19,746 nucleotides of DNA from a virus (taxonomy: Duplodnaviria > Heunggongvirae > Uroviricota > Caudoviricetes). Numbering within the stretch: the stretch's first letter is position 1; each line of letters opens with the position of its first letter. The stretch is taken from the IMG/VR virus record IMGVR_UViG_2671180921_000033, positions 1 to 19,746 of that record; one strand, written 5' to 3'. Both the position numbers and the translations under genes were made by a program. The notes beneath the pieces are model-generated. The model saw nothing but the letters and a program-made list of their open reading frames with translations. It was not told the origin of the DNA and did no database searches. Positions 1,461 through 19,746 of this stretch are shown piece by piece.

Positions 1461-1538
1461 TTTAAGCTGTGTGGCGTAGTAACCACTCTTAACAGGATAT
1501 TCAACTTTTTACGATCGTAAAGCGTTCAGGAAAAATTT

Positions 1539-2283: not shown

Positions 2284-2343
2284 ATGCACCGTTTCGATAT
2301 CCGGGGTTCCAATCCCGACGCCAGATTTTGCTGACGCGTGAGG

Positions 2344-2373
2344 AATATAGCCCCGGACAATGTGTCTGGTCAA
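2344..2373 (-). promoter_or_regulatory. PR'-like late promoter (candidate Q-utilisation region) immediately downstream of the Q gene
   Basis: Minus strand TTGACC - 17 nt - CTATAT starts 5 nt after the Q stop codon. The position is as in lambdoid PR'/qut/tR' modules. Confidence 0.45.
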
Positions 2374-2377
2374 GCAC

Positions 2378-2764: not shown

Positions 2765-3131
2765 CGTTATCACCTGTAATTTCGTAAACCTTCACACCCA
2801 GCCGACCACCAGGAACGACCTGACCGCGCACTATATTGATTTCATCAAACTGCTCGTCGTCTATGAGTAGTCCTGCATGGGTCAGTGCATCCAGTGGTGC
2901 TTTCAACAGATTGTCCAGGTCACGACGGCGCTTATCCGGTGGCTCCACAATCATCTTTATCGCCAGCCTTCCGGACAGGTTTAATTTCAGCCACTGCTGG
3001 CGAACAATTAGCGCCACATCACGGCGATAACGCTTTCCTGCTTCCGAGATGAAATACGTATTGCCATGACGTCGCCAGTAGGTATTCACCGTCGGCGGGT
3101 AAGGCAAAACAAATTCTATGCGTTCAGTCAT
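2754..3131 (-). CDS. rusA: RusA Holliday-junction resolvase
   Basis: Translation [43 protein letters not shown]...[29 protein letters not shown] carries the RusA hallmark motifs (PP-NxYx[11 protein letters not shown]). Its start abuts the DUF968 stop. Confidence 0.8.
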
Positions 3132-4187: not shown

Positions 4188-4188
4188 G

Positions 4189-4467
4189 TTACCTCCAGAT
4201 CCGTTGCTGGAATGTGCGGGACGGACGCGGTGGGCGCTCGGAGTACGGCAGCCTGACGGAGATTATCCAGTGTCGGAAGTCAAGACTGAGGTCTTTCCTG
4301 ACCTCGCGTCCGCGCCTGCGATAACACTGAATCAGCCACTCGGCCTGTTCTTCAGTGCATGGTGGGTGTTGGTACCAGTCGGTTTTAAATGCGTGAAAAC
4401 GCCGTCCGTGCATGCTGGCAAAGACGGCTGAATTATCAGGATTGTGTAGTCTGGAATTTTGCGCCAT
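4189..4467 (-). CDS. Hypothetical nin-region protein (92 aa)
   Basis: Intact ORF, co-oriented with and separated by 1 nt from the DUF968 gene. No family recognised. Confidence 0.4.
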   Translation of the reverse strand: MAQNSRLHNPDNSAVFASMHGRRFHAFKTDWYQHPPCTEEQAEWLIQCYRRRGREVRKDLSLDFRHWIISVRLPYSERPPRPSRTFQQRIWR

Positions 4468-4587
4468 CGGTTGTCTCTGCTGGCGCAGCAGGTGCCAGTT
4501 GTTCAGACTGGCGTGACAGATTATAACTCATAAAGAATAAAAATGACAAAATCTGCCAAAAAATAAAAATACGAAAAACAAGTTCTG

Positions 4588-4920
4588 TTACGACACCTTC
4601 CTGAAAATTGCCAGCGGTGTCATACCATAGGAAGTTCCTCTCCTCCCAATCATTTCCCGAATACCTTCAAGCATATAATCTATTGCAGATCTGATTTCGT
4701 TAGAAGGAATTTCTGGCTCTGAAACAGTCTCGTCACTTATATCCGGGAGCGCATCTATAACACCGATGACATACCATTCACCACGTATTCTTGAACCATA
4801 CTTTAATGCAAGATTTCCCACATCCAAAGCTAAATCATCAGCCTTGACCGACATCCAGAATATATTTTCTTGATCATCAAGAAGCTCTATCTGTGTAGAG
4901 AACGGGAGTAAAGAAAACAT
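4588..4920 (-). CDS. Hypothetical protein (110 aa), third gene of an AT-rich 3-gene cassette
   Basis: ORF starts 13 nt after the stop of the upstream gene. Acidic protein (MFSLLPFSTQIELLDDQENIFWMSVKADDLALDVGNL...). No family recognised. Confidence 0.5.
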   Translation of the reverse strand: MFSLLPFSTQIELLDDQENIFWMSVKADDLALDVGNLALKYGSRIRGEWYVIGVIDALPDISDETVSEPEIPSNEIRSAIDYMLEGIREMIGRRGTSYGMTPLAIFRKVS

Positions 4921-4933
4921 GTTAGCAGCAATT

Positions 4934-5416
4934 TTAGTATGATAAATTTCTTCTTGAATGTTTTTTTTTCTGATTTGGTGATTTAGTCTGCTTTAGCTCT
5001 TTTCGTTTTGCATCTTTATACATAGGAAAAACATCATGAGCCATTTTCACATCAAATAATTTGATATGCCCTTTTACCATCACCAGACTTCCAATTTCTG
5101 CATTTTCTAAGCTCGTTGCCACCAAGCCTTGTTCGTGCAACTTATCAAAAAAATTTAATGGTAAAGACCATGATGAGTCAAAATGCCGCTCTTGCGTTCT
5201 TGCAAAAGAATCACCCGCATTTTTCCTGGCATTAAATAATGAAACGCCACCTTTAAGTTCATTTAATGAATGCTCAGAACTGGACGAGATTTGTTTTACA
5301 GCATTCAATACTCCCGATGGAAATAATTGCGCAGTGAAGTAACCTACGCGCTCTTTGTCAAGATAAAGGTAATCAAATAGTGAATCTACAGCTTGACAAT
5401 CTTGATCCATTGGCAT
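4934..5416 (-). CDS. Hypothetical protein (about 160 aa), second gene of the AT-rich 3-gene cassette
   Basis: Start ATGCCAATGG preceded by SD AAAGAGGTG, overlapping the upstream small ORF by 44 nt. Lys-rich C-terminal tail. No family recognised. Confidence 0.5.
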   Translation of the reverse strand: MPMDQDCQAVDSLFDYLYLDKERVGYFTAQLFPSGVLNAVKQISSSSEHSLNELKGGVSLFNARKNAGDSFARTQERHFDSSWSLPLNFFDKLHEQGLVATSLENAEIGSLVMVKGHIKLFDVKMAHDVFPMYKDAKRKELKQTKSPNQKKKHSRRNLSY

Positions 5417-5552
5417 GCACCTCTTTGATCCTTGCTTTTTCCTCAGCAATTTTTCTTTGCTTTTCTTCGATTTCATCATACATCAATTGCATTTCAGCGA
5501 TGTCGAACGGCTTTGAACCACTTTTAAGCGATCTCACCAGTTTGCGGATCAT
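5373..5552 (-). CDS. Small hypothetical protein (59 aa), first gene of the AT-rich 3-gene cassette
   Basis: ATG at 5552 preceded by SD AGAGGGGA. Translation MIRKLVRSLKSGSKPFDIAEMQLMYDEIEEKQRKIAEEKARIKEV. Below the ORF-track length cutoff. Confidence 0.35.
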   Translation of the reverse strand: MIRKLVRSLKSGSKPFDIAEMQLMYDEIEEKQRKIAEEKARIKEVHANGSRLSSCRFTI

Positions 5553-5692
5553 TGCGTATCCCCTCTTAAATATCGTTCAAATTATGTTCAAACAAATTCT
5601 CAAACACAACAATGTGATACATCAATGTTTGGGTGCGTTGAGGATGCCTGACACATCAGAGGTGGCGAGGGATTTCTCCCCCGCCAGGTCTC

Positions 5693-5848
5693 TTACTCCT
5701 CAGGTTCGTAAGCTGTGAAGACAGCGACCTCCGTCTGGCCGGTTCGGATTCGTACCTCGCAGAGGTCTTTCCTCGTTACCAGTGCCGTCACAATGACGGT
5801 TAAACAGATGACGATCAGGGCGATTAACATCGCCTTTTGCTGCTTCAT
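5693..5848 (-). CDS. hok: Hok/Gef-family type I toxin
   Basis: Translation MKQQKAMLIALIVICLTVIVTALVTRKDLCEVRIRTGQTEVAVFTAYEPEE (51 aa) has the Hok signature: TM helix then RK-LCE-R-G-EVAAF. SD AAGGAGAAG precedes the ATG. Confidence 0.8.
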   Translation of the reverse strand: MKQQKAMLIALIVICLTVIVTALVTRKDLCEVRIRTGQTEVAVFTAYEPEE

Positions 5849-5894
5849 AGCCTGCTTCTCCTTGCCTTTCGGCACGTAAGAGGCTAACATCCAT
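5700..5894 (-). CDS. mok-like overlapping reading frame (translational coupler for hok)
   Basis: 64-codon frame starting at ATG 5894 and overlapping hok almost entirely, as in hok/mok/sok loci. Start choice within the 107-codon ORF-track frame is uncertain. Confidence 0.35.
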   Translation of the reverse strand: MDVSLLRAERQGEAGYEAAKGDVNRPDRHLFNRHCDGTGNEERPLRGTNPNRPDGGRCLHSLRT

Positions 5895-5965
5895 ATGTCT
5901 AGCATGAAATTGGCCTAAGTTTAATATTAAACGTCTTGCGGGACGCGTAATGTTAACTGGGCTTT
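5895..5965 (+). ncRNA. Possible Sok-like antisense RNA (approximate coordinates)
   Basis: Candidate plus-strand promoter TTGCCT - 17 nt - TAACAT (5862..5890) facing into the hok/mok leader. Ends not defined; inferred from hok/sok architecture. Confidence 0.2.
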
Positions 5966-6245
5966 TCTCTATCTGCCGTTGGTGTTCATGCCCGAGGCAG
6001 ATAGCCTCAAGCACACGCAGCAATTTTACTTAACTATTTTTCCGAAAAATTAATTATTACTAATGCATAGTTTATAAATCACACGATGATATTATAAATC
6101 TAGTGTAAGGGAACATTTAAGTTAAGAATCACATTTTACTAGCCAAAAACATAAAACAGATCTCTTAATAATAAGCAGCTTTTATATAAAAACCACGATG
6201 TGTTTTCATAATAATATGCAGTACCAGCTACTCAGCAATATGAGG

Positions 6246-6764
6246 TTATTCAGTCAAGCTTTTGCGCCCGTACGCACTTCTCAAACTTGCACATGTTTCT
6301 CTAATCCTAACAATTTGCATACAATCAGGTCTTAGAGGTCGGTTGTGAACATCACTATCATATGTCATGGCTTGGCGTAATTCCTTAAACAATTTTGCCT
6401 TATATTTTTCACCACCGGCCCTTTCAATTTCTTTAGCGATAGTAGTTAAACTCTTAACCTCCCTACTCATTTTTGCTAACGCCAGTGTAGGTTCTTTATT
6501 ATTATCTTCAGCCCAGAACTCTAAGGCAAAATCCTCAAGCAACTCCAGTTTTTGTCTAAACTCACCGATCCATTCATTATGAGCATCTTTAATAGCATCT
6601 CCTCTACTTTTTGTGGTTTGGAGATAAGCAATATATGCCGTAATCCCCCATCCAACTAAAACTAAAAACCAAGTTACATACTGATTTTCATCTTTAAACA
6701 AAGAAAAAAACTTACACCAAAAGTCTGCACTCCAAGTACAGACCTGGATACTTGAATTAGCCAT
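6246..6764 (-). CDS. Single-pass membrane protein (172 aa), fourth gene of the STAS/GHKL cassette
   Basis: Hydrophobic helix WFLVLVGWGITAYIAYL near the N-terminus, followed by a charged helical region. Its start overlaps the upstream gene stop as ATGGCTAA. Confidence 0.55.
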   Translation of the reverse strand: MANSSIQVCTWSADFWCKFFSLFKDENQYVTWFLVLVGWGITAYIAYLQTTKSRGDAIKDAHNEWIGEFRQKLELLEDFALEFWAEDNNKEPTLALAKMSREVKSLTTIAKEIERAGGEKYKAKLFKELRQAMTYDSDVHNRPLRPDCMQIVRIRETCASLRSAYGRKSLTE

Positions 6765-7071
6765 GAGATACCTTTATAGCGTCCTCGATATATTCATTTA
6801 TCTCGTCAATTAACTCAGGTTCTTCTTCTGAGATAAATTTAATCCCTTTAACCTTATCAGGACTCACGCCACGCCTAATCAATCCGCCAAAGCACTCCTC
6901 CAAGAAAGAAGAACCATACCCCTCCGTTCCATCAAGGTCTATTGTTAGATCTGGTGAATGTTTAAGCTCTCTTTCTACCCACTCACGAAACTCCTCACCA
7001 GAAGCGGGCCCCAATCTTTTAAAACGAGGTCCTGGGCAAGGATAACGACTGGCTACTTTTATAATTTTCAT
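6757..7071 (-). CDS. Small STAS-like (DUF4325-like) protein, 104 aa
   Basis: ATG at 7071, 1 nt after the GHKL gene stop. Segment DLTIDLDGTEGYGSSFLEECFGGLIRRG resembles the STAS-like core of anti-sigma-antagonist-type proteins. The domain call is by eye. Confidence 0.45.
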   Translation of the reverse strand: MKIIKVASRYPCPGPRFKRLGPASGEEFREWVERELKHSPDLTIDLDGTEGYGSSFLEECFGGLIRRGVSPDKVKGIKFISEEEPELIDEINEYIEDAIKVSHG

Positions 7072-7072
7072 A

Positions 7073-7552
7073 CTACTCAGTTTCCACCTCACAAGGAATT
7101 GTCCATTCAATTATAGTACCATTAACAGAGCTTTTGTAATCTCTAAGCACTTCGTTAATAATGCCAGTTTTCCCTTTGTAAATATAGCGCCCTTTTGATG
7201 AAAAAATCCCCATAAAACCATCACCTATTGAATCGATTACCGATTTGATATCATTCAAGCCTTTACCTCGGTTCAGCTCCCCAGTCCTCGTTTCCTGAAG
7301 TAACGTGGAAGCCTTTATATAAGTAGAATCCTTTACATTTGCTAATGGAACTCTAAGTTTTTTGAAGATGTTCATTAGCACACTTACACCTTGTGTTTTA
7401 GGCAATGTTGAAGGTATTCCCACTCCTTTATCACATATTACCACTGTAAGATTTTTGTCATGTATGCCAGCAAAGGTCCACCACTTAGCTGTTTCGTCAT
7501 CTTCCGTATGCATTAAATCATCAACATAAGCATGCTCGACAGAATTAGACAT
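7073..7552 (-). CDS. GHKL-family ATPase, anti-sigma-factor/serine-kinase-like (159 aa)
   Basis: Bergerat-fold motifs in order: N-box NSVEHAY, G1 VVICDKGVGIP, G2 RGKGLNDI, G3 NGTIIEW. Size similar to RsbW/SpoIIAB-type kinases. Confidence 0.65.
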   Translation of the reverse strand: MSNSVEHAYVDDLMHTEDDETAKWWTFAGIHDKNLTVVICDKGVGIPSTLPKTQGVSVLMNIFKKLRVPLANVKDSTYIKASTLLQETRTGELNRGKGLNDIKSVIDSIGDGFMGIFSSKGRYIYKGKTGIINEVLRDYKSSVNGTIIEWTIPCEVETE

Positions 7553-7556
7553 GGCC

Positions 7557-8240
7557 TCAGTAAAGCCACGGTATAATTTTTTTTGATGATTTTCTTTCTA
7601 ACTCTTTTTTTATTTCCACCATCATTTCTTTTGCTAAAAGAGGCTCAGAACAAGAACCTGATGTATATTTCCAAAAAGTCACATCATCATAACTTTCAGT
7701 TTCTCTTTTAGGTTTCCTTAATAGATCATAGAAACCGACTTGATTCAAAATGCTTTCAATTTTCTTGTCTTTCGGATGTGAAAACCCTATGGCATTTACT
7801 CCAAATTCACTTTTCTTAATAAGCACATCAACTTCAGCGAGAAAAGATAACATAGCAGCTGCACTTATATATTTAGTTGAAGAAAAATCTATATAAACAC
7901 GATTATTCTTCAACACGCAATCGCGTAAATTATTTAAAAATTTATTCATGATTTCAAAATCACGATCGTTGTAATAATTAATAGATATCGGAGCAGAAAA
8001 AACCACCCTTTTATTACTTGTTGTCAACTTTTTCTTCGAGACTCGTAGCTTACGAGTGCGTTTGTAATATTCCAGTTTTCTCTTCGCATTTTCTACTCCT
8101 TCCCAATCCGTGCTTTTCAGAGAATTAAATATCCCCCTCTTCAGTTTCGAAACTTGCCCGCGATAGTTTAGTTTTTGAACTTTTCTTCTTTTTTGCAGAT
8201 TCATAAATATTTTCACATTTGATAACATCGCAGATATCAT
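7557..8240 (-). CDS. Protein with a basic N-terminal region and a STAS-like domain (227 aa), first gene of the cassette
   Basis: Lys/Arg-rich N-terminus (KRRKVQKLNYRGQVSKLKRG...KRTRKLRVSKKKL), then RVYIDFSSTKYISAAAMLSFLAEVDVL...NAIGFSHPKDKKIESILNQVGFYDLL, which resembles a STAS/anti-sigma-antagonist fold. No clear SD, so the start is uncertain. Confidence 0.5.
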   Translation of the reverse strand: MISAMLSNVKIFMNLQKRRKVQKLNYRGQVSKLKRGIFNSLKSTDWEGVENAKRKLEYYKRTRKLRVSKKKLTTSNKRVVFSAPISINYYNDRDFEIMNKFLNNLRDCVLKNNRVYIDFSSTKYISAAAMLSFLAEVDVLIKKSEFGVNAIGFSHPKDKKIESILNQVGFYDLLRKPKRETESYDDVTFWKYTSGSCSEPLLAKEMMVEIKKELERKSSKKIIPWLY

Positions 8241-8476
8241 ATTTCACATGAAAAATTTTTTGTAGCCCCTCCATCAAAGAAAATCGCTGCCTTTATCAAA
8301 AACATTTCGAAATTGTCAGCAACTTAACGTTCCCCCACCCCAACAGTAAAATTGATCCCACTAGCTCAAGTGAAAGTCACCCCGTAACATCCTGTTGATA
8401 CCCAGCGCCTGCGCTTTCGCTCTTACAGCATAACAAGAACGATCGATCCCCCATATGCTTTCTACCGTCAACGTGC

Positions 8477-8938
8477 CTACACACTGACCTGAGTGCCATG
8501 ATTTCCCTCATGCATAACCTGTTCACCGAATACCTCTCGAAAACCATTCTGGTAAAACGCCAGTACGCGCTGCATAGCTTCGCTCCTCCGACACTCGCGA
8601 CAGATTATGTTCAGACGCCTGTCATAGCGGCGTATTTCTCCGTCTGGTAATGAATAAACCAGGTCCGGGTCGCTCTTTTTTTTCACTGCTGCTTTCGACA
8701 TCTTTTTGCGGGCCTTTATCCAGTCCTTACGTGCCTGTTCAGACGGAAATAACCCGTAGCCGGAGTTGTATAAATCGCCACTGGCAACCAGCTCTCTGGC
8801 AAGAACACTCATCAGATACCTTGTCGCACCTGTCTTAGCTTCCAGTTGTCGTAACGTCTCGCGCCCACTCTGGCGCACGAGCTCAACAACCTTCCCCTTA
8901 ATTTTTTCCCGCTCTTCTTGTGTAAATACTTTTGCCAT
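8477..8938 (-). CDS. Hypothetical nin-region phage protein (154 aa)
   Basis: ATG at 8938 preceded by SD GGAGG. Co-oriented with the replication genes. No family recognised. Confidence 0.5.
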   Translation of the reverse strand: MAKVFTQEEREKIKGKVVELVRQSGRETLRQLEAKTGATRYLMSVLARELVASGDLYNSGYGLFPSEQARKDWIKARKKMSKAAVKKKSDPDLVYSLPDGEIRRYDRRLNIICRECRRSEAMQRVLAFYQNGFREVFGEQVMHEGNHGTQVSV

Positions 8939-8953
8939 AAGCGCCTCCGGCAA

Positions 8954-9715
8954 TCACTTTTCCGATGCAACATGGCGGGAAGAATCAGTAATCTGTCGTA
9001 CAATATCCCTGTGCTTGTTCAACTCACGCAGCGCGGCGCAGACACGCTCCCACTTCTGGACATGATTTTTCGCCCGACGCAGTTCGCGGTTTGCCATATG
9101 CAGTGATGGTAAAACCAGGTCATCCGCTCGCGTTTCAGTAAACGATGGCAGCGACTGCACAATGTCCGCCACAGTTTCTGTTTTAATATCTTCCTGTGTT
9201 GCAGCCTCCTGTACTGGTAACGCAACACCTGCGGGCTGAGGAAAGGCCTTACCATCAGTTTCCGCTACCGATGCTGCTTTCGGCTCTGCTGGTAAATTAT
9301 CGCCCGGTATGCAGTAACGAAATTTACCGCCCTGATTTACGCGAATCAGACGACCTTTGCTGATTGCCATTGCCAACGTTGAAGCCACTTTGCGTGATGT
9401 GGTACCAAAAAATGTAGCCAGCTCATCCGCCGTTTGTGGTCCACGTTGTTCAATCGTCGCAGTTAAATCGCTCTCTGAAATTTTCGCGACTGTTGCCGTG
9501 GTAGTTTCTTCCGGCAGTTCTGCCGGCGCTGGCTGTTCCTGCTGAACGTTGTTATCAGCCACACGCCAGGTGTACGCGCTTTTATCAACGAAACCAGCCT
9601 TTTTCAGTTCCCATAGTTCGTTCAGCACTTCTTCACGACTGATATCAAGTCGCGCAGCAAGTTCTATGGATGTGGCTTTTCCCATCGCTTTCAGTGCGTC
9701 AAAAACAGTCTCCAT
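8954..9715 (-). CDS. Hypothetical phage protein, possibly a winged-helix DNA-binding protein (253 aa)
   Basis: ATG at 9715 preceded by SD GGGAGG. Two segments ([26 protein letters not shown] and [29 protein letters not shown]) look like HTH/winged-helix units. Confidence 0.5.
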
Positions 9716-9737
9716 TAAAATTTCCTCCCGGTAAAAA

Positions 9738-10484
9738 TCACTTCGCAATTCCTGGCTGGACGACATTCGGACGCCAGCTCTCCCAGTTAAAATTCACCCA
9801 TCGCCCGCCGTTCATGGTCATGCGGTCCATCACTCGCTCTCCCAGAAGGGTGCTCATCGCGGTATGGTTCAGGTTCGTCAGCATCCCGACACTGCGCATC
9901 GAAGCCGTTCTGCGGTCGACTATCTGGTTCAGAGTGACCTGTTCATTGCGTGTATCACGCTGCATGCCAATCTCATCCAGAACCAGCAGGTCAACGTTGC
10001 ACAATCCCTGCAAAAACTTTTCACCCGAGTTTTTGTTGTCGTAGCTGCCGTGCAACGCCAGCATCACATCAGCCACAGTGATCACAATCACACTCCGCCC
10101 CTTCGCCAGAAGATGGTTGCCGATGGCTGCCGCAAGGTGATTTTTTCCGGTACCCGGCTTACCGCTGAACACGAAATTTGTGCACCTGGTCATAAGTTCG
10201 TCCGCGATGGATTTTGCATGACTCAGCGCGTGGCGTTGCCCGTCGTTCTGCACCCGGTAATTCGCAAACGAACACTTCTGGTGCAACGGCTGGATACCCG
10301 AACGGTTCAGAATTTTTTCCGCATGAATCTTGTTATTCAGGCGATTAATCTCCTCACTACGTTTTCGCCCTTCAGCAAGCCACCACTCGTACCACTCTTC
10401 CCGTGTCCGGTACGGCGCGGTTACATGCTGTGGGGCCAGTCTGCGGATACGTTCAAGAACACCGCTTGCCGCAATATTTTTCAT
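9738..10484 (-). CDS. DnaC-like helicase loader (IstB-like AAA+ ATPase), lambda P equivalent
   Basis: Walker [18 protein letters not shown] and Walker [10 protein letters not shown]. Position immediately downstream of the O-like initiator. Confidence 0.85.
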
Positions 10485-10490
10485 GGTCAG

Positions 10491-11456
10491 TTACCCCCTG
10501 AAGCCTGGCGGAATTTCGGTATCCGGTTCAGAAATGTGATTCACACAACGCTGTGCCGGACCACGTCCCAGACGAATCACCAGCTCATCCCATTTTTCGC
10601 GGAGCTTTGACGGACTCATGATGTTTTTTACCCAGAATGAATCCCGCTGTACCCGACCAAACATTTCGCAAATTTGCCTGTGCGTTCTGCCATCCAGCAT
10701 CCGCATTGTGCGCACGTCATTGGCCCACGCGGTCCAGTTGGGTTCTTTCGGACGCGCGATCTCACCATCATCGCTGGCGGCCTGCTCGTAAAGACTCACG
10801 ATTCGTCCCCAGATCCACTGCGCACACGCCAAATCTTCCTGGCTGCCCCACTGGCGTTTTTTCGCACTGAACACAACCGCGTCAGGGTGTCGGGTTAAAA
10901 AATCCTGTTCAGCCGTCTGCGGGTCCGGTTGCGAAGCGTCCGGACGAGAAGTGTTTTTATTCTCTGTAGTAATCTCTGTTGTATTCTCTGTAAGATCATC
11001 GGGCCATTTTGACCCGATGACATTGGGTCGTTTTGAACCAATGGAGCGTGTCATTTTGGCCTCTTCCATCGTGTCATTTTGACCTGATGGAGCGGCGCAT
11101 TTTGACCTGATGGATTCGCTCGCTTTGCCACCATCTAAAAGCTCGCTCTCGTAATTAATCGTGTAAAAATTAGTCATGTCACGCTTTGATTTATTGAGCT
11201 TTTCGCAACGCAAAAGCCCCAGCGTTTTCAGACTTGCAAATGCGCGTTTTAACGTTGACTCTGACCAGAACGGGAACTGTTCCAGCCATTGTTCCGTTGT
11301 GTTATAAATCCAGCGAACACCGTCACACTCCATGCCGGAATTGGTATCTCTCAACCAGTAATGCAGCTGCTGCAACACGATGGCTTCGTTCAGACCTATT
11401 TTCATCGCCAGCTGCGTGTTTATAACCAGCGGGCGTTCAGCAAAAAGGAGCTTCAT
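10491..11456 (-). CDS. Replication initiator / replisome organiser (lambda O equivalent)
   Basis: N-terminal winged-helix-like segment LNEAIVLQQLHYWLRDTNSG, strong SD GGGGGAAGGG, and an internal iteron array (11001..11115) as in lambda O/ori. Confidence 0.7.
   Translation of the reverse strand: MKLLFAERPLVINTQLAMKIGLNEAIVLQQLHYWLRDTNSGMECDGVRWIYNTTEQWLEQFPFWSESTLKRAFASLKTLGLLRCEKLNKSKRDMTNFYTINYESELLDGGKASESIRSKCAAPSGQNDTMEEAKMTRSIGSKRPNVIGSKWPDDLTENTTEITTENKNTSRPDASQPDPQTAEQDFLTRHPDAVVFSAKKRQWGSQEDLACAQWIWGRIVSLYEQAASDDGEIARPKEPNWTAWANDVRTMRMLDGRTHRQICEMFGRVQRDSFWVKNIMSPSKLREKWDELVIRLGRGPAQRCVNHISEPDTEIPPGFRG
11001..11115. repeat. Iteron array (candidate phage origin) inside the O-like gene
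   Basis: Five copies of CATTTTGACC(C/T)GATGG-like repeats (two degenerate) spaced about 23-24 bp apart from 11005 to 11112, with shorter CTCTGT direct repeats just left of them. Confidence 0.55.
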
Positions 11457-11477
11457 CCCTTCCCCCGGAACACGTTA

Positions 11478-11903
11478 TCAATGCACCACCACGGCATTTC
11501 CTGCCGGACCACCGCGATTCATCTGGTCGAACAGAACGATCGCTGATGCAACGAACTCATCGATATCTTTCACCAGCCGATCCCGTCGCTCGACAATCTC
11601 CCGGTGATACTCCGAACTGTGACTGCGCATTCGGGCCACCAGCGGTGGCGGCATTGCCTTTTCGATCGCTGGTAACAACGCCTGAATTTTTTTAACCGCA
11701 TCAGGGGTGTCTTTCTCCACCCAGCGGAAAATCTTCTGAGTATTGCGAGCCAGGGCTTCTGGGTGTGAATCGTCGTACAGTTCCGGAAACGTCATTCCCA
11801 GCTCAAAATACGCTTTGGTAATCTCTGCAGCCGGAACTTTCTCGCCGTCCGGATGCGCCCAGGCATTCATCGCCATGCGGATGTGTTCATGCTTGATTTT
11901 CAT
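11478..11903 (-). CDS. YdaT-like prophage protein (CII-position gene)
   Basis: Begins MKIKHEHI and ends VVVH, as I recall for Rac YdaT. Start overlaps the upstream gene stop as ATGA. SD GGGAG. Confidence 0.5.
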   Translation of the reverse strand: MKIKHEHIRMAMNAWAHPDGEKVPAAEITKAYFELGMTFPELYDDSHPEALARNTQKIFRWVEKDTPDAVKKIQALLPAIEKAMPPPLVARMRSHSSEYHREIVERRDRLVKDIDEFVASAIVLFDQMNRGGPAGNAVVVH

Positions 11904-12160
11904 GAATCAACTCCCGCAGCTGGTTGTGTGTTAGCCTTAAACTCAGAAGGCAAGCCGTCGGTTGGGTTAGGATAAATATCTGGGCGGATTTCATGCGGGG
12001 TAACTTCCCACTTCATTAGTTGGCATAACGGAATTACCTGCTTTGGGGGAACGCCAAAGCTAAACCATTGCCAAACAGTCTGTTGAGCGACCCCCATATA
12101 ACGACCTATTTCAGCCTGAGTGTATTTCTGCCTAATTTTTTCGCGAGTGCTATCTAGCAT
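11900..12160 (-). CDS. Cro-like / YdaS-like HTH regulator
   Basis: HTH-like segment YTQAEIGRYMGVAQQTVWQWF. Divergent from the repressor gene across the operator region. SD GAGGAGGG. Confidence 0.6.
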   Translation of the reverse strand: MLDSTREKIRQKYTQAEIGRYMGVAQQTVWQWFSFGVPPKQVIPLCQLMKWEVTPHEIRPDIYPNPTDGLPSEFKANTQPAAGVDS

Positions 12161-12196
12161 TTTGCCCTCCTCTAAAAACTATAAGCAAAGCCTACA

Positions 12197-12229
12197 ATAA
12201 AAAACTGTATACGATCAACAGTTTTTTAT
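12197..12229. promoter_or_regulatory. Operator-like inverted repeat in the divergent promoter region
   Basis: Perfect 12-bp arms ATAAAAAACTGT - 9 bp - ACAGTTTTTTAT between the Cro-like and repressor genes. Confidence 0.5.
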
Positions 12230-12268
12230 TGTGATGCTTTTAACAGTATTTACCTGTAAAATTGAATA

Positions 12269-12670
12269 ATGATGAGCGCCCTAGAAGTATCTATGTACAG
12301 AATCAGCAAGCTTCTTCAGGAAACTGGATGGAGCCAGGCTGAGCTTGCCCGTAGAATTGGTGTGACACAACAAACTGTTCAACAATGGGTCAGCGGTAAG
12401 GCTACACCTAAAGCCTCAAGTTTGGATAAACTGGTTGAGGTTTCAGGGCATCCATTGCATTGGTTTTTATTGCCTCCTGAAGAGGGTGAGCAAATTTTCA
12501 CCCCTGACACGATGAAAATTGGTCCTCGCCAACGCGAACTGCTCCAAGCTTTTAGTGCGTTTCCTGAGGAAGACCAAGAAAAAATGCTTCAAGAAATCAA
12601 AGACAAGAAAAAATCAATGGAAGAAACCATTGCTCGGTGGCTGGCTGCACAAAAAAGCCGCCGGGCGTGA
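12269..12670 (+). CDS. XRE-family HTH repressor (PaaR-like; candidate prophage repressor)
   Basis: HTH segment WSQAELARRIGVTQQTVQQWVSGK. First gene of an operon with the antitoxin and toxin below. Start could be the ATG at 12269 or at 12293. Confidence 0.7.
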   Translation: MMSALEVSMYRISKLLQETGWSQAELARRIGVTQQTVQQWVSGKATPKASSLDKLVEVSGHPLHWFLLPPEEGEQIFTPDTMKIGPRQRELLQAFSAFPEEDQEKMLQEIKDKKKSMEETIARWLAAQKSRRA

Positions 12671-12697
12671 CCACAGTACAAGAAGAGGAGTTATGCC

Positions 12698-12889
12698 ATG
12701 GGTACAGCCCTTTCTCCGATAGTTTCAGAATTCGAAACTACCGAACAAGAAAACAGTTACAACGAATGGTTGCGCACTAAAGTAACGTCAAGCCTTGCAG
12801 GCACTCGCCCCGCAATTCCACATGACGAGGTAATGGCTGAAATGGAAAATCTTATTGCTCAAATTGCTGTAACTAACAGGAGCGAGTAA
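12698..12889 (+). CDS. PaaA2-like antitoxin
   Basis: 63 aa, MGTALSPIVSEFETTEQENSYNEWLRTKVTSSLAGTRPAIPHDEV; strong SD AAGAGGAG. Resembles, from memory, the PaaA2 antitoxin of E. coli three-component ParE systems. Confidence 0.65.
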   Translation: MGTALSPIVSEFETTEQENSYNEWLRTKVTSSLAGTRPAIPHDEVMAEMENLIAQIAVTNRSE

Positions 12890-13176
12890 TGTTACCCATT
12901 TTATGGCTACCGTCTGCTCGCGATGATTTGCGTCAGATCATAACTTACATCGCCAAGGAGAACCCACCGGCAGCACGTAGACTAAAAATACGCATTGAAA
13001 CATCGGTATTACCTCTATCTGAGCATCCGTACTTATATCCACCAAGCGAACGGGTTTCTGGATTGAGAGAGATCGTGACCCACCCTAACTACATAATCCT
13101 GTACAGAGTAGCTGCTTCAAGCATTGAGATTGTAAGCGTGACACATTCTCGGCGACAATTTCCCTTCTCTATCTGA
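12889..13176 (+). CDS. ParE/RelE-family toxin
   Basis: 95 aa, MLPILWLPSARDDLRQIITYIAKENPPAARRL...REIVTHPNYIILYRV. Its start overlaps the antitoxin stop by 1 nt (TAATG). Confidence 0.8.
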   Translation: MLPILWLPSARDDLRQIITYIAKENPPAARRLKIRIETSVLPLSEHPYLYPPSERVSGLREIVTHPNYIILYRVAASSIEIVSVTHSRRQFPFSI

Positions 13177-13194
13177 GTTGAACAATTTTCATAC

Positions 13195-13219
13195 TCCCTC
13201 TTTCGAGGGATTTTTTTTT
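13195..13219 (+). terminator. Rho-independent terminator of the repressor-antitoxin-toxin operon
   Basis: TCCCTC-TTTC-GAGGGA followed by nine T residues. Confidence 0.65.
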
Positions 13220-13233
13220 GCCCAAAACAACAA

Positions 13234-13272
13234 TTAAAAACTGTTGACATAAAACAGTTTTTAATTGTAGAT
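13234..13272 (+). promoter_or_regulatory. Second operator-like inverted repeat overlapping a candidate PL-like promoter
   Basis: Perfect 11-bp arms TTAAAAACTGT - 9 bp - ACAGTTTTTAA. TTGACA at 13244..13249 lies inside the repeat, with a weak -10 (GTAGAT/TAGATT) 17-18 nt downstream. Confidence 0.5.
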
Positions 13273-13455
13273 TACATACACCAACCACCCACCCCGCCCC
13301 ACAGAATGTCGGGCAATACTTCGAGTTACCCGGCAGTGGTCAGGGGTTAAGTAGCCAGCCCGAGGCGTAAGAACATGACGGCAGGGTTCAACTTTAATAA
13401 CTATGCAGCAGGTTTTTGTTCCGCTACCCCGGCGTTAAGGGGAAATGAGGTCAGC

Positions 13456-13611
13456 ATGGATACTATCGATCTTGGCAACAGCGAATCTCTGGTATGTGGC
13501 GTGTTCCCCAACCAAGACGGTACGTTCACCGCGATGACGTATACCAAAAGCAAAACGTTTAAAACCGAAGCTGGCGCGCGTCGTTGGGTGGCAAGACATT
13601 CAGGTGAATAA
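13456..13611 (+). CDS. Small early-left protein (51 aa)
   Basis: ATG at 13456 preceded by SD-like AGGGGAAATGAGG. Translation MDTIDLGNSESLVCGVFPNQDGTFTAMTYTKSKTFKTEAGARRWVARHSGE. The ORF-track version is a 78-codon extension. Confidence 0.4.
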   Translation: MDTIDLGNSESLVCGVFPNQDGTFTAMTYTKSKTFKTEAGARRWVARHSGE

Positions 13612-13612
13612 A

Positions 13613-13759
13613 ATGAACGAAACAGAATTAAAACACGTTATCGCTCTACTTCTGGAGGATACAAAACGCCTCCAGCAACTGGAACCAAATGCAGGCACTG
13701 AAGCCCGCATCTTGCTGGCATTGCGCGCTATTGAGTCAGGTCGTGATGATGAAGGTTAA
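13613..13759 (+). CDS. Small early-left protein (48 aa)
   Basis: ATG 2 nt after the previous stop. Translation MNETELKHVIALLLEDTKRLQQLEPNAGTEARILLALRAIESGRDDEG. Below the ORF-track cutoff. Confidence 0.3.
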   Translation: MNETELKHVIALLLEDTKRLQQLEPNAGTEARILLALRAIESGRDDEG

Positions 13760-14040
13760 GCATCATCTAAGTTTTTTACATAGCGCCCATTAGATTCGGT
13801 AACAAGAACTCCGGGATTTTTCTTAACTTTTGAGGCCACTGATTCAGCAAGGTTAGCAACAGATTCTTTGTCTTCATTCTTGCTTGAATATGTATATTCG
13901 GCATTAGGAAGTCGGTAGGTGTTCCCTGAAGAGGTTGTAATCGTTCTGGAGAATCCCTTTGCTTCCATTCGTTCATGAAGCTTATCGTAATCAGCGGAAC
14001 TGGAATCGCGAAGTTCGATCCTGACTGTAAATTTTGCCAT
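13756..14040 (-). CDS. Hypothetical protein (94 aa), oppositely oriented moron inside the early-left arm
   Basis: ATG at 14040 preceded by SD GGAGGA. Translation MAKFTVRIELRDSSSADYDKLHERMEAKGFSRTITTSSGNTYRLP... Its 3' end overlaps the convergent plus-strand ORF by 4 nt. Confidence 0.5.
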   Translation of the reverse strand: MAKFTVRIELRDSSSADYDKLHERMEAKGFSRTITTSSGNTYRLPNAEYTYSSKNEDKESVANLAESVASKVKKNPGVLVTESNGRYVKNLDDA

Positions 14041-14626
14041 TTTATCCTCCATTAAGGTTCTGGGTTAGAAATGGAGACCAACACGCTGCTACGTGTGGTC
14101 GTGCGCCGGACACGGATAAGAATCCGGCACTGACAGTTTACTGAAAAGATATATCCCTGAAAAATCAGGGCATAACACGAAAGCGCACGGCGAAGTCCTT
14201 CTCCCTTAGAGCTGTCGTTAAATTTAATTCGACCGTGCGCTTCCGGTTGTGGCAATCCGCGAAATGGCGCGGCGGTAAGTATGGCAGGGGTTATTTCTTT
14301 CTCCTGGTTAGGACGCCGGGTTGTCAGGTTGACCATACGCCTGAGTGACAACCCCGTCACAACATCTCCATGTTTGTTGGTTGGCACCGGGAACTTTGGC
14401 GGAATCAGTTTTTGCTTCGCTACTGCTCTTCCGCCCTTTTTTAAAGTGAATTTTGTGATGCGGTGAATGCGGCTCAGCGCACGCGGAACAGTTAAAAACA
14501 CAAGTGTTATGGGTGAATCATCCGGCGTTAATTGTTAACTGGTTAACGTCACCTGGAGGCACCAGGCACCGCATCAACAAAGTTCACTTCGGTGATGAAA
14601 GGTAGAGAAAATGTTGAATGTAGCTA

Positions 14627-14655
14627 TTGAAAACCTGAACGGGTGGAATTATAGT
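14627..14655 (+). promoter_or_regulatory. Second PR'-like promoter (homologous to the region downstream of Q)
   Basis: TTGAAA - 17 nt - TATAGT. The following roughly 250 bp align in patches with the reverse complement of 2100..2370. Confidence 0.4.
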
Positions 14656-14715
14656 GCATCCGCACCTCATAAAACGGGTGTCGGGCGTGGAAACCCGATG
14701 TTCACTAACGCGCAT

Positions 14716-14739
14716 AACCGCGCTCAGGCGGTTTTTTTA
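14716..14739 (+). terminator. tR'-like intrinsic terminator, second copy
   Basis: AACCGC-GCTCAG-GCGGTT followed by TTTTTTTA; near-identical to the minus-strand terminator at 2261..2283. Confidence 0.6.
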
Positions 14740-14907
14740 TGCGTAATGCACAGCCACATTCAGATTATGGTGGGACGTGCAGGGCAGCCGCAAGGCTGGC
14801 CGGGTTCGTTAGTGACCGGTATTTCCACCCCTGTACGTCTCACCACCCTTATGGTCGTGGAAAACCTTGGTGGTGAGTTAATCAAATTCACTAACGAGGC
14901 TGCTATC

Positions 14908-15462
14908 ATGGCTACTATCCCTACCCTTTCTCACCCTGACGTAACCATCAAAAATGGTCGCGCTGTCACTACGTCTGTTGCGGTTGCAGAGTTCTTCCGC
15001 AAAATGCACAAGGACGTTTTGCGCAAAATTGAAACGCTAGAATGCTCTGAAGATTTTAACGAGCGCAATTTTACGCCCGTTACCTACACCGACGCCAAAG
15101 GCGAAAAACGACCAATGTACCAAATCACCAAAAACGGCTTCGTTTTCCTGGTGATGGGTTTCACCGGCAAAAAAGCCGCCGCATTCAAAGAAGCCTACAT
15201 CGCTGAGTTCGACCGCATGGAGGCAGAGCTGCGTCAGAATAACACCCCGCCCGCTGACAAAATTATTCCGGGTGATGGTCGCACTCTCGTTGTTCACTTC
15301 GACGAACACGGCAACATCAGATTCACCGAAACCGTTCCTGACGGCGCTCTCGTCTGTACCCTGGATACCTTCCGCTTTTATCTGGAGAAACAGGGCTGGA
15401 CTCTTGTTAACCGTAGCGCAATTAAAAATATGACCGTCGAACAGTTGCTGGGTATTAAATAG
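14908..15462 (+). CDS. Rha-family phage regulatory protein (antirepressor)
   Basis: ATG at 14908 with SD GAGG. Translation MATIPTLSHPDVTIKNGRAVTTSVAVAEFFRKMHKDVLRKIETL...FNERNFTPVTY...ITKNGFVFLVMGFTGKKAAAFKEAYIAEF matches the Rha pattern. The ORF-track 5' extension to 14611 runs through a promoter and terminator and is rejected. Confidence 0.85.
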   Translation: MATIPTLSHPDVTIKNGRAVTTSVAVAEFFRKMHKDVLRKIETLECSEDFNERNFTPVTYTDAKGEKRPMYQITKNGFVFLVMGFTGKKAAAFKEAYIAEFDRMEAELRQNNTPPADKIIPGDGRTLVVHFDEHGNIRFTETVPDGALVCTLDTFRFYLEKQGWTLVNRSAIKNMTVEQLLGIK

Positions 15463-15508
15463 TTTTCCGGGATTTTCTTAATACGACAAATTCATTAAGG
15501 AGATAATT

Positions 15509-15730
15509 ATGATTGCTCATCACTTCGGAACCGATGAAATACCGCGTCAGTGTGTAACGCCCGGTGATTACGTTATGTATCAGGGAAGAACGTATGTTGC
15601 ATCTGTCAATGAAATCAAAAAACACCGGCTTTATATCCGGGGATTCTGCACTCAGCATTGCATTAAGGACACCATGATTAAGGTCTTCCTCGGTCGTGAC
15701 GGATTGCCCGCAAAAGCGGAATCATGGTGA
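15509..15730 (+). CDS. Small protein (73 aa) at the position and size of Rac KilR
   Basis: Strong SD AAGGAG 6 nt upstream of the ATG. Translation [32 protein letters not shown]... The KilR-like call rests on size and synteny, not on a verified alignment. Confidence 0.45.
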
Positions 15731-15871
15731 CGGGCAATTAAATGCGGAATCAGATTATATTTCCGTTATGACCGGATAAAACACAAAATTTATAAAACAC
15801 ACATTAACCATGAATTTATGCCAGCAATGGCAGGGATTTGTTCACCCTGAAAATGGTAATGAGGTTTATCA

Positions 15872-18325
15872 ATGAACGCTGATAATAAAGAAATTGCACT
15901 ATATTACGAAGCCAAAAATGACAAAGTCAGAAAACGCCTTGGAATTAAAGGCGGTTTTTGCTGGCGCACAGCAAAAAAATTATCGGTTGCAATATCACAC
16001 GGTATTGTCGCAATGGACGATGCCGGATTTGACGAAGAGGATTTTAAAAAACCCGTCCGCGTCCATTTACCCGTTGTGAATGACCTTCCTCCGGAAGGCG
16101 TGTTTGATACCGAATTCTGCAACCGATACGAAAAAGGCGGGGAAGATGGTATCACAATGGTACTTATCGCACCCTCGCCCTCTGTTCAGGACAAACCAGC
16201 CAGCACTGACAATACCAACGTCAACGGCGAAGACATGACTGAGATTGAGGACAATATGCTTCTGCCGGTTTCAGGTCAGATTCTGCCTGTTCGATGGCTG
16301 GCACAGCACGGCAGCGAAAAACCGGTCACGCACGTTTCACGGGACGAGCTGCGCGCATTACATAACGCACAGGAAGAAAAACTTCCCACTGTTACCGTGC
16401 TGGCCATCTCAAATAAAGCAGTGCAACTCGAACCGCTGGAGATTCGGGATTTGTACAAACTGGTGCGGGACACTGACAAGGTTTTTCCCGCCCCCGTAAA
16501 TTCAGACCTGGGGTTTATGACCGCCTTCATCGAAGCATACCTGGACGCTGACTACACCGATCGCGGTCTGCTTACAAAAGAGTGGATGAAGGGAAATCGT
16601 GTTTCGCGCATCAGCCGCACACCATCCGGCGCTAACGCTGGCGGCGGTATTCTTACCGATCGCGGCGAAGGTTTTGTACACGATAGTGCATCACTGGCGC
16701 GCGACGTAGCCACTGGCGTGCTGACCCGCTCAATGGACGTGGACATTTACAATCTTCATCCCGCGCACGCTAAACGCATTGAGGAAATTGTCGCTGAAAA
16801 TAAACCTCCCTTTTCTGTGTTTTTCAGCAAATTCATCACCATGCCTGGCGGGATGGACTATTCCCGCGCCATCGTGGTTGCCTCCGTGAAAGAAGCACCG
16901 GTTGGTATAGAGGCTATGCCCCACCGCGTCACCGAATATCTGAATAAAGTGCTGACCGAAACCGATCATGCCAACCCTGATCCGGAAATCGTGGATATTG
17001 CCTGCGGTCGCTCCTCCGCCCCGATGCCGCAGCGTGTAACAGAAGAAGAAAAACAGGATGATGAAGAAAAACCGCAACCATCTGGTGCAATGGCAGATGA
17101 ACAGGCAACGGCTGAAGCAATGGAGCCGGATACAACTGAACATCGCCAGAACACGCAATCGCTTGATGCTCAGGCACAGGTAAATTCTGTTGATGCGAAA
17201 TATCAGGAACTGCGGGCAGAACTCCATGAAGCCCGGAAAAACATTCCATCAAAAAATCCTGTCGATGCCGATAAATTGCTTGCTGCATCACGTGGTGAAT
17301 TTGTTGAGGGGATTAGCGACCCGAACGATCCGAAATGGGTGAAGGGGATTGCAACACACGATACTGTGAACCAGTGCCAGCAAGAATCGGAACAGAACGA
17401 CCAGAAAGCGGGACAAAACAGCCCGGATGCGCAACAAAACGAGCCAGAAGCGATACATCCGGAGCCGGAAGCGCAACACGTGCAGGAAAAACCATGTAAT
17501 GCTTGCGGGAAACATGGCGGCGGCAACTGCCCTGACTGTGGCACAGTGATGGGTGACGCAACACACCAGGAAATGTTCAATGAAGAGAATCAGCCTGAAG
17601 TTCAGGAAAATAATCCGGAGGAAATGGAAGGCTCTGCGCATCAGCACAAGGAGAACTCTGGTGGCAATCAGCATCATGCCAGCGATAGTGAAACTGGCGA
17701 GACGGCAAATCCCTTAATTAAGGTGACTGGTCATCATAAATATAAGTCCACCAGCAAAACGTGGTATCACCTGATGATCGACCTTGAGACGATGGGAACC
17801 AACACCAATGCGCCCATCGTGGTTATTGGGGCGGTTTTCTTCGACCCGCAGACAGGGAAAATCGGGCCGGTATTTTATATCGTTATCAGTCTGACTGACG
17901 CAATGAATACAGGAGCTGTTCCTGACGGTGGAACCATCGAATGGTGGCTGAAGCAGTCCAGTGAAGCCAGAGCTGCCATTTTAACAGACCAGGTGAAACT
18001 GAAAGATGCCCTTTTGCGCTTTCGGGAATTCGTCAATGAACACTCTGATGAAAAATTCGTTCAGGTGTGGGGGAATGGTGCAACGTTCGATAACTCAATT
18101 TTGCGCACCTCATACGAACGCCTGGGCATCCCCTGCCCGTGGCATTACAGCAACGATCGTGATGTACGCACGATCGTTGAGCTGGGGAAAACCATAGACT
18201 TCAATGCCAGAAGCGTAATTCCATTCGAAGGCGTACCCCACAATGCGCTGGATGACGCCCTTCACCAGGCAAAATACGTTACAGCCACTATTCAAAAACT
18301 GATCCCGAGTCAGGCTGATTTTTAA
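15872..18325 (+). CDS. RecE-like large protein whose C-terminal domain is a DEDDh 3'-5' exonuclease (817 aa)
   Basis: N-terminal two-thirds resemble, from memory, the Rac RecE N-terminal region (for example [50 protein letters not shown]). The last roughly 190 aa carry DEDDh motifs [20 protein letters not shown] and [12 protein letters not shown]. Confidence 0.7.
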
Positions 18326-18389
18326 TGTTCAACCCCGGTCGTCGCCCACCAGCTATAGTGGCGGCGACCATGATTAACAAACAACGCTC

Positions 18390-18638
18390 ATGGCAAGACT
18401 TATTCTGCTCACTGAGTGGGCAAAAGAGGAATTCGGCGATCCGATCCCTGCTCCGGGCACGTTAAGTAAATACGCTAAAGCCGGAATGATATTTCCTCTT
18501 CCCAAAAAAGTTGGAAGACGCTGGCGAGTGGATCCGCGAGCTCGCTTTGTCGGAATGGTAAACAAGCCGGAGGTGATCGCCACAGATCACCCAGCATTGA
18601 AGAGGATACTGGAAGATGGCGCGCCCGCGAAAATATAA
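18390..18638 (+). CDS. xis: Excisionase (lambda Xis-like)
   Basis: 82 aa, LLTEWAKEEFG...GMIFPLPKKVGRRWRVDPRARF parallels the lambda Xis core. 3' end overlaps the integrase start. Confidence 0.75.
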   Translation: MARLILLTEWAKEEFGDPIPAPGTLSKYAKAGMIFPLPKKVGRRWRVDPRARFVGMVNKPEVIATDHPALKRILEDGAPAKI

Positions 18639-19746
18639 AACTGATGTTCCGGGATTATCTCCGTATTTTGACAAAAGAAATAACAAAGTTTACTGGCGTT
18701 ACAAGCATCCCATAACAGGCAAAAATCACGGTCTCGGCAGTATTGAGCAGAAACTGGCAGAAACTATTGCAGCAGAAGCGAACAGCCGTCTTGCCAGGCA
18801 GCAAATGGAACAAATGCTCAGTCTGCAGGAGAAAATTATTAGAGATACCGGCGGTTCATCAACCGTTTCCATTTTTCTGAATAATTACAGAAAAATTCAA
18901 CAGGAAAGATATGAAAACGGAGAGATCAAACTCAACACGCTGAAACAAAAAGCGGCCCCTCTCAGGGTATTTGATGAACATTTTGGCACCAGACCGTTAG
19001 ATGCCATAACCGTAAAAGATGTGGTATCGGTGCTGGAAGAGTACAAGGCCAGAGGACATAACAGAATGGGACAAATTTTCAGGAAGGTATTGATCGATGT
19101 TTTCCGGGAGGCTCAACAAACGGGTGATGTCCCGCCAGGCTTTAACCCGGCTGAATCGGCAAAAAAACCGCAAGTGCGGATATCAAGACAGCGACTGACT
19201 TTTGATGAGTGGATGATGATTTATAACGCAGCGGAAAAGGATGGTTACTTTTTACAGCGCGGCATGCTGCTGGCACTGATGACGGGCCAGCGTCTTTCGG
19301 ATATTTGCAAAATGCAGTTTTCGGATATCCGGGATGGTTATCTTCATGTCGAACAGCAAAAAACAGGAGCCCGGATAGCCATTCCTCTGGCTCTGCGTTG
19401 CGACAAATTAAATCTTACCCTGGGTGACGTGGTGTCATCCTGTCGTGATTACATCCTTAGTCCGTGGTTATTGCACCATCATCACGCTAAGGGGATGGGT
19501 AAGCGCGGCGGGATGGTTAAACCAGCAACATTAACAGTCGCATTTAAAAAAGCCCGGGATTCTGTGGATTACAACTGGCGTGCTAATGGCACGCCACCCT
19601 CTTTCCATGAGCAAAGATCTTTATCAGAACGATTGTTCAGAGAACAGGGAATTGATACCAAAATTTTGCTGGGCCATTCGAATCAAAAAATGACCGATAT
19701 TTACAACGACGCACGCGGTAAAGAATGGAAAAAACTGGTTATTTGA
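18616..19746 (+). CDS. int: Tyrosine integrase (lambda Int family)
   Basis: 376 aa with catalytic-region motifs TGQRLSDI, FHEQRSLS and LLGHSNQKMTDIY. Stop codon at the window edge. Confidence 0.9.
   Translation: MARPRKYKTDVPGLSPYFDKRNNKVYWRYKHPITGKNHGLGSIEQKLAETIAAEANSRLARQQMEQMLSLQEKIIRDTGGSSTVSIFLNNYRKIQQERYENGEIKLNTLKQKAAPLRVFDEHFGTRPLDAITVKDVVSVLEEYKARGHNRMGQIFRKVLIDVFREAQQTGDVPPGFNPAESAKKPQVRISRQRLTFDEWMMIYNAAEKDGYFLQRGMLLALMTGQRLSDICKMQFSDIRDGYLHVEQQKTGARIAIPLALRCDKLNLTLGDVVSSCRDYILSPWLLHHHHAKGMGKRGGMVKPATLTVAFKKARDSVDYNWRANGTPPSFHEQRSLSERLFREQGIDTKILLGHSNQKMTDIYNDARGKEWKKLVI

Follow-up and report, generated by a model that had tools for sequence, protein, structure and literature searches.

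A lambdoid immunity region of presumed PaaR1 type with a paaA-parE toxin-antitoxin pair in the rex position: candidate operators, promoters and modular variation

The immunity region of a 19,746-nt stretch of Caudoviricetes DNA (IMG/VR record IMGVR_UViG_2671180921_000033, positions 1 to 19,746; hereafter the window) is very probably a lambdoid prophage switch of the kind found in CP-933M and CP-933P. That is, a CI-like repressor would control lysogeny and, from the same promoter, the expression of a paaA-parE toxin-antitoxin (TA) pair. This reading draws on the gene content of the window, on homology, on the geometry and conservation of operators and promoters, and on modularity; repressor function, the leaderless start, bistability and addiction are taken from experiments on the paralogue. 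Neither the gene trio nor the idea of a shared switch is new, since the trio was named in 2010 and the switch was demonstrated for the paralogue in 2021. What we add is a sequence-level operator and promoter map of the PaaR1-type immunity cassette (Table 1), evidence for a block-swap origin of heteroimmune variants, and evidence for the TA pair as interchangeable cargo of the rex slot. These could guide cross-immunity experiments and searches for defence genes expressed in lysogens.

In the proposed mechanism, the 133-aa CI-like repressor would act at OR and OL and silence two promoters: PR, which serves ydaS/ydaT and the replication genes, and PL, which serves ydfA and the early-left genes. 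The weak promoter of the repressor gene itself, PRM, would likewise be under its control; the PRM transcript is probably leaderless, beginning at the ATG. This transcript would run on through paaA and parE, placed in the slot held by rexA-rexB in lambda, to a terminator just before OL/PL, so that antitoxin and toxin would be made whenever the lysogenic repressor is made. YdaS would compete as the Cro analogue, and YdaT (the CII analogue) could open a second route into the operon from a TTGATT-N6-AATCAA site at the ydaS/ydaT junction. With a labile PaaA and a stable ParE, a cell in which the cassette is lost or replaced would be poisoned by the ParE set free, and the immunity region would be stabilised.

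Table 1. Annotated and predicted features of the immunity region (window coordinates)
Feature	Position	Strand	Basis
ydaT-like gene (lambda CII analogue), 141 aa	11478..11903	-	Pfam YdaT_toxin, 39.1 bits
Candidate YdaT operator TTGATTTTCATGAATCAA, ydaS/ydaT junction (OM-like, PRE region)	11893..11910	.	motif match
ydaS-like gene (Cro analogue), 86 aa	11900..12160	-	Pfam YdaS_toxin, 39 bits
Putative PR	12189..12218	-	-35 TTGATC (12213-12218), 18-nt spacer, -10 TAGGCT (12189-12194)
OR1-like operator ACAATAAAAAACTGT, within PR spacer	12194..12208	.	repeats, cross-genus alignment
OR2-like operator ACAGTTTTTTATTGT, adjoins PR -35 and weak PRM -35 region	12218..12232	.	repeats, alignment
OR3-like operator ACAGTATTTACCTGT, overlaps PRM -10	12243..12257	.	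repeats, alignment
Putative PRM: -10 TAAAAT (12257-12262), start at A of ATG (12269)	12257..12269	+	alignment
paaR-type immunity repressor (presumably PaaR1-type), 133 aa	12269..12670	+	XRE HTH N-terminal and PaaR C-terminal domain
paaA antitoxin, 63 aa	12698..12889	+	Pfam PaaA2; without DNA-binding domain
parE toxin, 95 aa	12889..13176	+	Pfam ParE_toxin; homology to ParE2 (PDB 5cw7)
Intrinsic terminator (tImm-like), TCCCTC-TTTC-GAGGGA then T9	13195..13219	+	terminator scan, folding
Putative OL/PL region	13230..13273	+	PL -35 TTGACA (13244-13249), -10 TAGATT (13268-13273)
OL operator ACAATTAAAAACTGT	13230-13244		repeats
OL operator ACAGTTTTTAATTGT	13254-13268		repeats

The predicted operon and its place among the PaaR paralogues

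An earlier note on this DNA had described an XRE-family repressor, a 63-aa antitoxin and a ParE-family toxin on the plus strand, and the three open reading frames are indeed there, each supported by Pfam. The regulator matches HTH_3 (47.5 bits, cutoff 23) and, barely above the model cutoff, Phage_CI_repr (23.2 bits vs 22); the Pfam search returned no match to Peptidase_S24, the LexA/S24 autocleavage domain. PaaA2 (PF21217) is the sole Pfam match of the antitoxin (63.1 bits, cutoff 27), which also matches the PaaA2 structure 3zbe in the PDB (E 1.4e-19). The toxin belongs with ParE_toxin (PF05016, RelE/ParE superfamily; 63.5 bits, cutoff 23) and matches 5cw7_B, ParE2 of E. coli O157:H7 (E 3e-36). 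A sequence search of the PDB found no PaaR structure, the regulator matching only generic HTH proteins (434 repressor and HipB).

The three genes are closely spaced. Only 27 nt lie between the regulator stop and paaA, Shine-Dalgarno sequences precede paaA (GAGGAG, 12685-12690) and parE (AGGAG, 12878-12882), and the paaA stop TAA (12887-12889) and the parE ATG (12889-12891) have one base in common, which is the 1-nt TAATG overlap given in the note. Between the genes there is no plus-strand terminator. From this short gap, the overlap, the lack of an internal plus-strand terminator and the presence of a sole terminator after parE, we infer that regulator, antitoxin and toxin share one transcript; co-transcription was shown for the paralogue, according to PMC4803016. 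The terminator had been called strong. It is present and canonical (hairpin at 13195-13210 followed by T9), but with a folding energy of -10 kcal/mol and a z-score of -2.65 it is not exceptionally strong. In two other E. coli loci (L003 and L005) the same interval holds G+C-rich hairpins followed by a T-rich stretch, as read by eye.

As in the type II parDE systems of RK2 and Vibrio cholerae, a ParE-fold toxin gene here directly follows the antitoxin gene and is translationally coupled to it. Unlike in parDE, the antitoxin has no DNA-binding domain, and transcription would be under a separate phage repressor, not under the antitoxin-toxin complex. Neutralisation of ParE toxicity (SOS induction or topoisomerase poisoning) by the cognate antitoxin is known for the paralogue ParE2 and is predicted for the present ParE.

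Two paaR-paaA-parE paralogues were named in E. coli O157:H7 by Hallez 2010, as summarised in PMC4803016, according to which PaaA1 and PaaA2 reportedly do not neutralise the toxin of the other system. To place the window between them we used locus L004, which we take as the authentic PaaR2 locus because its encoded proteins are identical to the PDB entries for PaaA2 and ParE2 and its regulator starts with MQKKE, the N-terminus determined experimentally for PaaR2. The comparison with PaaR2/PaaA2/ParE2, which the earlier note had proposed as a check, gives 42% identity for the regulator (BLASTP, over 98 aa, E 1e-20), 68% for PaaA and 67% for ParE (over 92 aa). Nearly all of the similarity between the regulators falls in the last ~45 residues, with strong conservation from about 88 to 133; their N-terminal HTH domains differ and give no convincing alignment. 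The description of the module as PaaA2/ParE-like thus stands as homology, but the regulator is not PaaR2 and belongs to the other O157:H7-type paralogue.

A copy with 99.4-99.6% identity to the paaA-parE DNA of the window is present in 438 complete E. coli genomes, among which are many of O157:H7; in those O157:H7 records the query matched two places. The PaaR2-type locus was found at 99.8% in other O157:H7 records, including EDL933, the two types being documented in separate records. By elimination (two copies in O157:H7, the window's being the non-PaaR2 one), the window locus is presumably of the paaR1-paaA1-parE1 type. The nearest protein found for the regulator is P0001 from E. coli, at 99% identity. 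In O157:H7 ATCC 43894 (L002), the 133-aa WP_000986592.1 is annotated at the regulator position and the gene order is that of the window, ydaT-ydaS / regulator-paaA-parE / ydfA. The paaR1-paaA1-parE1 system of the cryptic prophage CP-933M (Hallez et al. 2010) is apparently the same system, the TA DNA being 99.4% identical in O157:H7 genomes. Only the surrounding modules of the window differ: ydaS/ydaT, the replication and the early-left genes diverge, with 96.3% identity over 95% of a 2-kb query and no more than 56% coverage of the whole window.

With an HTH domain, the C-terminal domain shared with PaaR2 and no S24 domain, the regulator falls within the PaaR family. Its DNA-binding specificity is another matter: PaaR2 uses operators of the GTTTAGTAA type, and the window has no GTTTAGT repeats and carries ACAGT-N5-ACTGT sites instead. 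Different operators together with a different N-terminal domain point to a different immunity type within the family. Compared with the CP-933P locus paaR2-paaA2-parE2/ydaS-ydaT (Jurenas et al. 2021; PDB 5cw7, 3zbe), the gene order, the PaaR C-terminal domain and the YdaT operator agree, as do the missing S24 peptidase domain, a -10 placed for a leaderless repressor mRNA and a terminator followed by OL/PL. The repressor N-terminal DNA-binding domain and YdaS do not, and the four 18-bp palindromes of CP-933P contrast with 15-bp sites in the window, three at OR and two at OL.

Predicted operators and promoters of the switch

The earlier note had placed the repressor divergent from a Cro-like gene, where a cI gene would be, and genes of the YdaS and YdaT families do occupy the opposite strand there (Table 1). 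The window YdaT is 91% identical to that of the PaaR2-type (CP-933P-type) locus. The YdaS proteins, on the other hand, share only 23% identity, which is not significant (E 0.026), and this dissimilarity suggests that YdaS is part of the variable immunity cassette. The candidate YdaT operator is a perfect match to TTGATT-N6-AATCAA, the only perfect one in the window, and an identical 18-mer lies at the same junction in L004; in the published system this operator was mapped at the ydaS/ydaT junction (Prolic-Kalinsek et al. 2023; PMC9986795).

A repeat search revealed a 39-41-bp palindrome in the intergenic region (12194-12232), which recurs past the terminator, at 13230-13268. A single 39-bp palindrome per promoter was considered and rejected, because in the cross-genus alignment each arm proves to have 5-5-5 symmetry of its own and PRM is covered by a third site. 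We reinterpret each palindrome as two adjacent 15-bp ACAGT-N5-ACTGT sites. The operator repeats of the earlier note are borne out in this form: with up to one mismatch allowed, the window contains six copies of the motif where 0.37 would be expected, and OR and OL account for five of them. The start-to-start spacing is 24 bp from the OR1-like to the OR2-like site and 25 bp from the latter to the OR3-like site. The alignment comprises six loci with the same repressor type, from E. coli and from Salmonella (81% identity), Pluralibacter, Morganella and Klebsiella (about 69%), and across these five genera the operators align ungapped; in Klebsiella, the first site and the third carry a variant, ACAAG/CTTGT, that is also symmetric. 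Most likely, the 133-aa repressor binds these 15-bp operators, three at OR and two at OL. Control by the SOS response through a LexA box was also considered and rejected, as the core is CTGT-N9-ACAG and not N8, with zero CTGT-N8-ACAG sites in the window.

PL reads TTGACA-18-TAGATT, with one operator in the spacer and another abutting the -35, and is predicted to drive ydfA and the early-left genes. The same OL/PL arrangement is present in the Morganella loci, and paired sites are present in Salmonella. PR was assigned as TTGATC-18-TAGGCT because the minus-strand layout of OR equals that of PL; its TAnnnT hexamer and the TTGA of its -35 are kept at the same alignment columns in five genera. A promoter consensus scan of the window made no call for PR or PRM, the PR -10 TAGGCT and the PRM -35 being poor matches. 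For PRM, a TAAAAT or TAGAAT hexamer (TAAAAT in the window, TAGAAT in two genera) lies exactly 6 nt 5' of an invariant ATGATG in all six loci, and in none of the six is there a Shine-Dalgarno sequence before the repressor ATG. A -10 at this distance without a Shine-Dalgarno sequence predicts a leaderless repressor mRNA, as for paaR2 and lambda cI, with its start at 12269 in the window. A start at the internal Met9, preceded by AGAAG as a Shine-Dalgarno sequence, was rejected, because conservation of the protein extends over residues 1-8 and relatives have Thr, Ala or Arg in place of Met9.

Altogether, a repressor divergent from cro/cII-like genes, repeated operators overlapping both promoters and a further operator set at PL make this a lambdoid immunity region. 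Like lambda cI-rexA-rexB, the locus has divergent PRM and PR with three operators about 24 bp apart, a repressor followed by two cargo genes, a terminator and then OL/PL in the same direction, a leaderless repressor mRNA (predicted here) and Cro and CII analogues on the other strand. Unlike lambda, it shows no sequence homology to CI, Cro, CII or Rex, its repressor lacks a RecA-cleavable S24 domain, and its cargo is a type II TA pair. The proposed map of a PaaR1-type switch with three lambda-like 15-bp operators is apparently new, as we found no earlier mapping.

A separate observation concerns the ~100 bp between PL and ydfA (13274-13374, CAACCACCCACCCCGCCCCACAGAA...GGTCAGGGGTTAAGTAGCCAGCCCGAGGCGTAAGAAC), which are nearly invariant in L002-L005, across all immunity types, although the adjacent operators differ completely. 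The interval, which has no Rfam match at the gathering threshold, could act as a leader RNA or a nut-like element.

A probable immunity repressor, block exchange and the proposed cargo slot

In CP-933P, PaaR2 occupies the cI position and is the CI analogue, with YdaS and YdaT as the Cro and CII analogues (Jurenas et al. 2021; PMC8630535). The same study established experimentally that the paaR2 mRNA is leaderless and reported footprints of PaaR2 on the paaR2-ydaS intergenic region, octamerisation and OR-OL DNA looping. PaaR2 represses PR (ydaST) and the downstream PL, activates its own promoter at low dose and autoregulates the operon that carries the TA genes, which places the TA pair under the immunity switch. 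The immunity locus is bistable, and the whole CP-933P region is addictive, stabilising an unstable plasmid by post-segregational killing (PMC8630535). The suggestion of the earlier note that prophage maintenance and addiction share one switch therefore corresponds to a published model, demonstrated for this paralogue, which would extend to the window by homology. The toxin activity of ParE2 is known, and in neither switch state was ParE2 activity detectable (PMC8630535), which leaves the biological payoff of the TA pair uncertain.

How the locus varies bears directly on what it is. Among the E. coli loci L002-L005, the repressor N-terminal domain, the OR and OL operators and YdaS vary jointly, and YdaT, the repressor C-terminal domain and the sequence past PL are conserved. 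Variation of this kind is classic for heteroimmune lambdoid phages. These data are evidence that heteroimmune variants arise when one block, comprising YdaS, the operators and the repressor N-terminal domain, is swapped and YdaT and the C-terminal domain are kept. The paaA-parE pair is found behind repressors with at least three types of N-terminal domain. Conversely, the PaaR1-type repressor (69-81% identity) keeps its position and operators in four other genera, where unrelated small genes lie downstream and paaA-parE is missing.

These observations weigh on the oldest interpretation, in which the three genes form a self-contained TA system and the HTH protein is a dedicated TA regulator (a split antitoxin) rather than an immunity repressor. 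The family was first described as a three-component TA system (Hallez 2010, as summarised in PMC4803016), PaaA lacks a DNA-binding domain of its own, and the three genes stay together in more than 400 E. coli genomes. Nevertheless, we regard this interpretation as very improbable: the same repressor type sits in the cI position over the same operators in four genera without paaA-parE, paaA-parE follows repressors with other DNA-binding domains, the operators also cover a second promoter, PL, which faces early-left prophage genes, and PaaR2 represses ydaST and PL (PMC8630535). The earlier note had likewise spoken of a three-component TA in the immunity region; the three genes are in place, but the locus is best described as an immunity repressor that would carry the TA pair as exchangeable cargo in the rex slot. 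Still less probable is an inert remnant, i.e. decayed genes of a cryptic prophage with no current function. CP-933M and CP-933P have been described as cryptic (PMC8630535), and the window is a mosaic, of which complete E. coli genomes cover at most 56%, at 87.5% identity. Against decay, no open reading frame is broken and Shine-Dalgarno sequences are present, 438 genomes preserve the TA DNA to at least 99%, the operators and promoter geometry are conserved across genera, and the exact regulator protein recurs in 1143 collection blocks, in prophages with differing flanks, replication/recombination modules and integration sites.

A reading closer to ours keeps the same regulation and assigns paaA-parE mainly to phage exclusion, triggered by infection as a rexAB-like module, rather than to addiction or to opposing recombination. 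The pair occupies the rexAB slot, and paaA2-parE2 has been described as replacing rexA-rexB (PMC9986795); other genera have variable, mostly unannotated cargo in this slot, a typical trait of prophage defence hotspots, and activation of ParE2 was seen in neither switch state (PMC8630535). Post-segregational killing has, however, been shown to stabilise a plasmid in the paralogue (PMC8630535), and PADLOC models match neither the TA proteins nor the alternative cargo (nor, in the same scan, two neighbouring ORFs). We consider an exclusion role of this kind rather unlikely as the main function.

More tentatively, and less likely than not, the position 3' of PaaR-family repressors might be a lambda-rex-like cargo hotspot of which paaA-parE is one of several occupants. 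The alternative cargo in L006-L014 (Salmonella, Klebsiella, Pluralibacter, Morganella) includes a 112/120-aa protein with a marginal EACC1 match, an overlapping pair of 84 aa and 170 aa, and proteins of 152 aa and 143 aa; the marginal match is the only one to Pfam among these genes. Such uncharacterised cargo, under the lysogenic promoter, could encode novel functions in exclusion or defence. On the same view, ParE in the window may act in phage exclusion or protect the immunity region from being replaced.

One E. coli locus departs from the single-repressor layout. In strain 00-3076 (L005, 2174-3026), two tandem repressor genes lie 5' of paaA-parE, one PaaR2-like (123 aa) and the other PaaR1-like (153 aa) with an extended C-terminus that overlaps the paaA start. 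A scar of recombination, or a cassette conferring dual immunity, may account for this arrangement.

Other features of the window

Rfam searches placed two modules, each of isrK plus C4 antisense RNA, above gathering scores, at 14662-14850 (+) and 2152-2350 (-). Each is found on the 5' side of an antirepressor-like gene, the former with 14611-15462 (+), an ORF of the Rha/Ash family, and the latter with 1539-2099 (-), an ORF6N ORF, and looks like the antirepressor control of P1 immI. These modules could offer an induction route for a repressor without a RecA-cleavable domain. A 98-aa ORF (13756-14052, -) with a marginal Pfam match to GhoS, a type V antitoxin (21.8 bits vs cutoff 21), abuts a 149-aa ORF (14052-14501, -) with no family match. 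The two occupy the interval from PL to the Rha gene, in opposite orientation to it, and this block is absent from the O157:H7 loci. A sok antisense RNA of the hok/sok type I TA system (5843-6016, -; 95 bits) brings the TA systems of the window to at least two. Near the late-gene side, adjacent genes for tRNA-Gly(TCC) and tRNA-Thr(TGT) occupy 384-537 (-), downstream of a Q antiterminator gene at 2378-2773.
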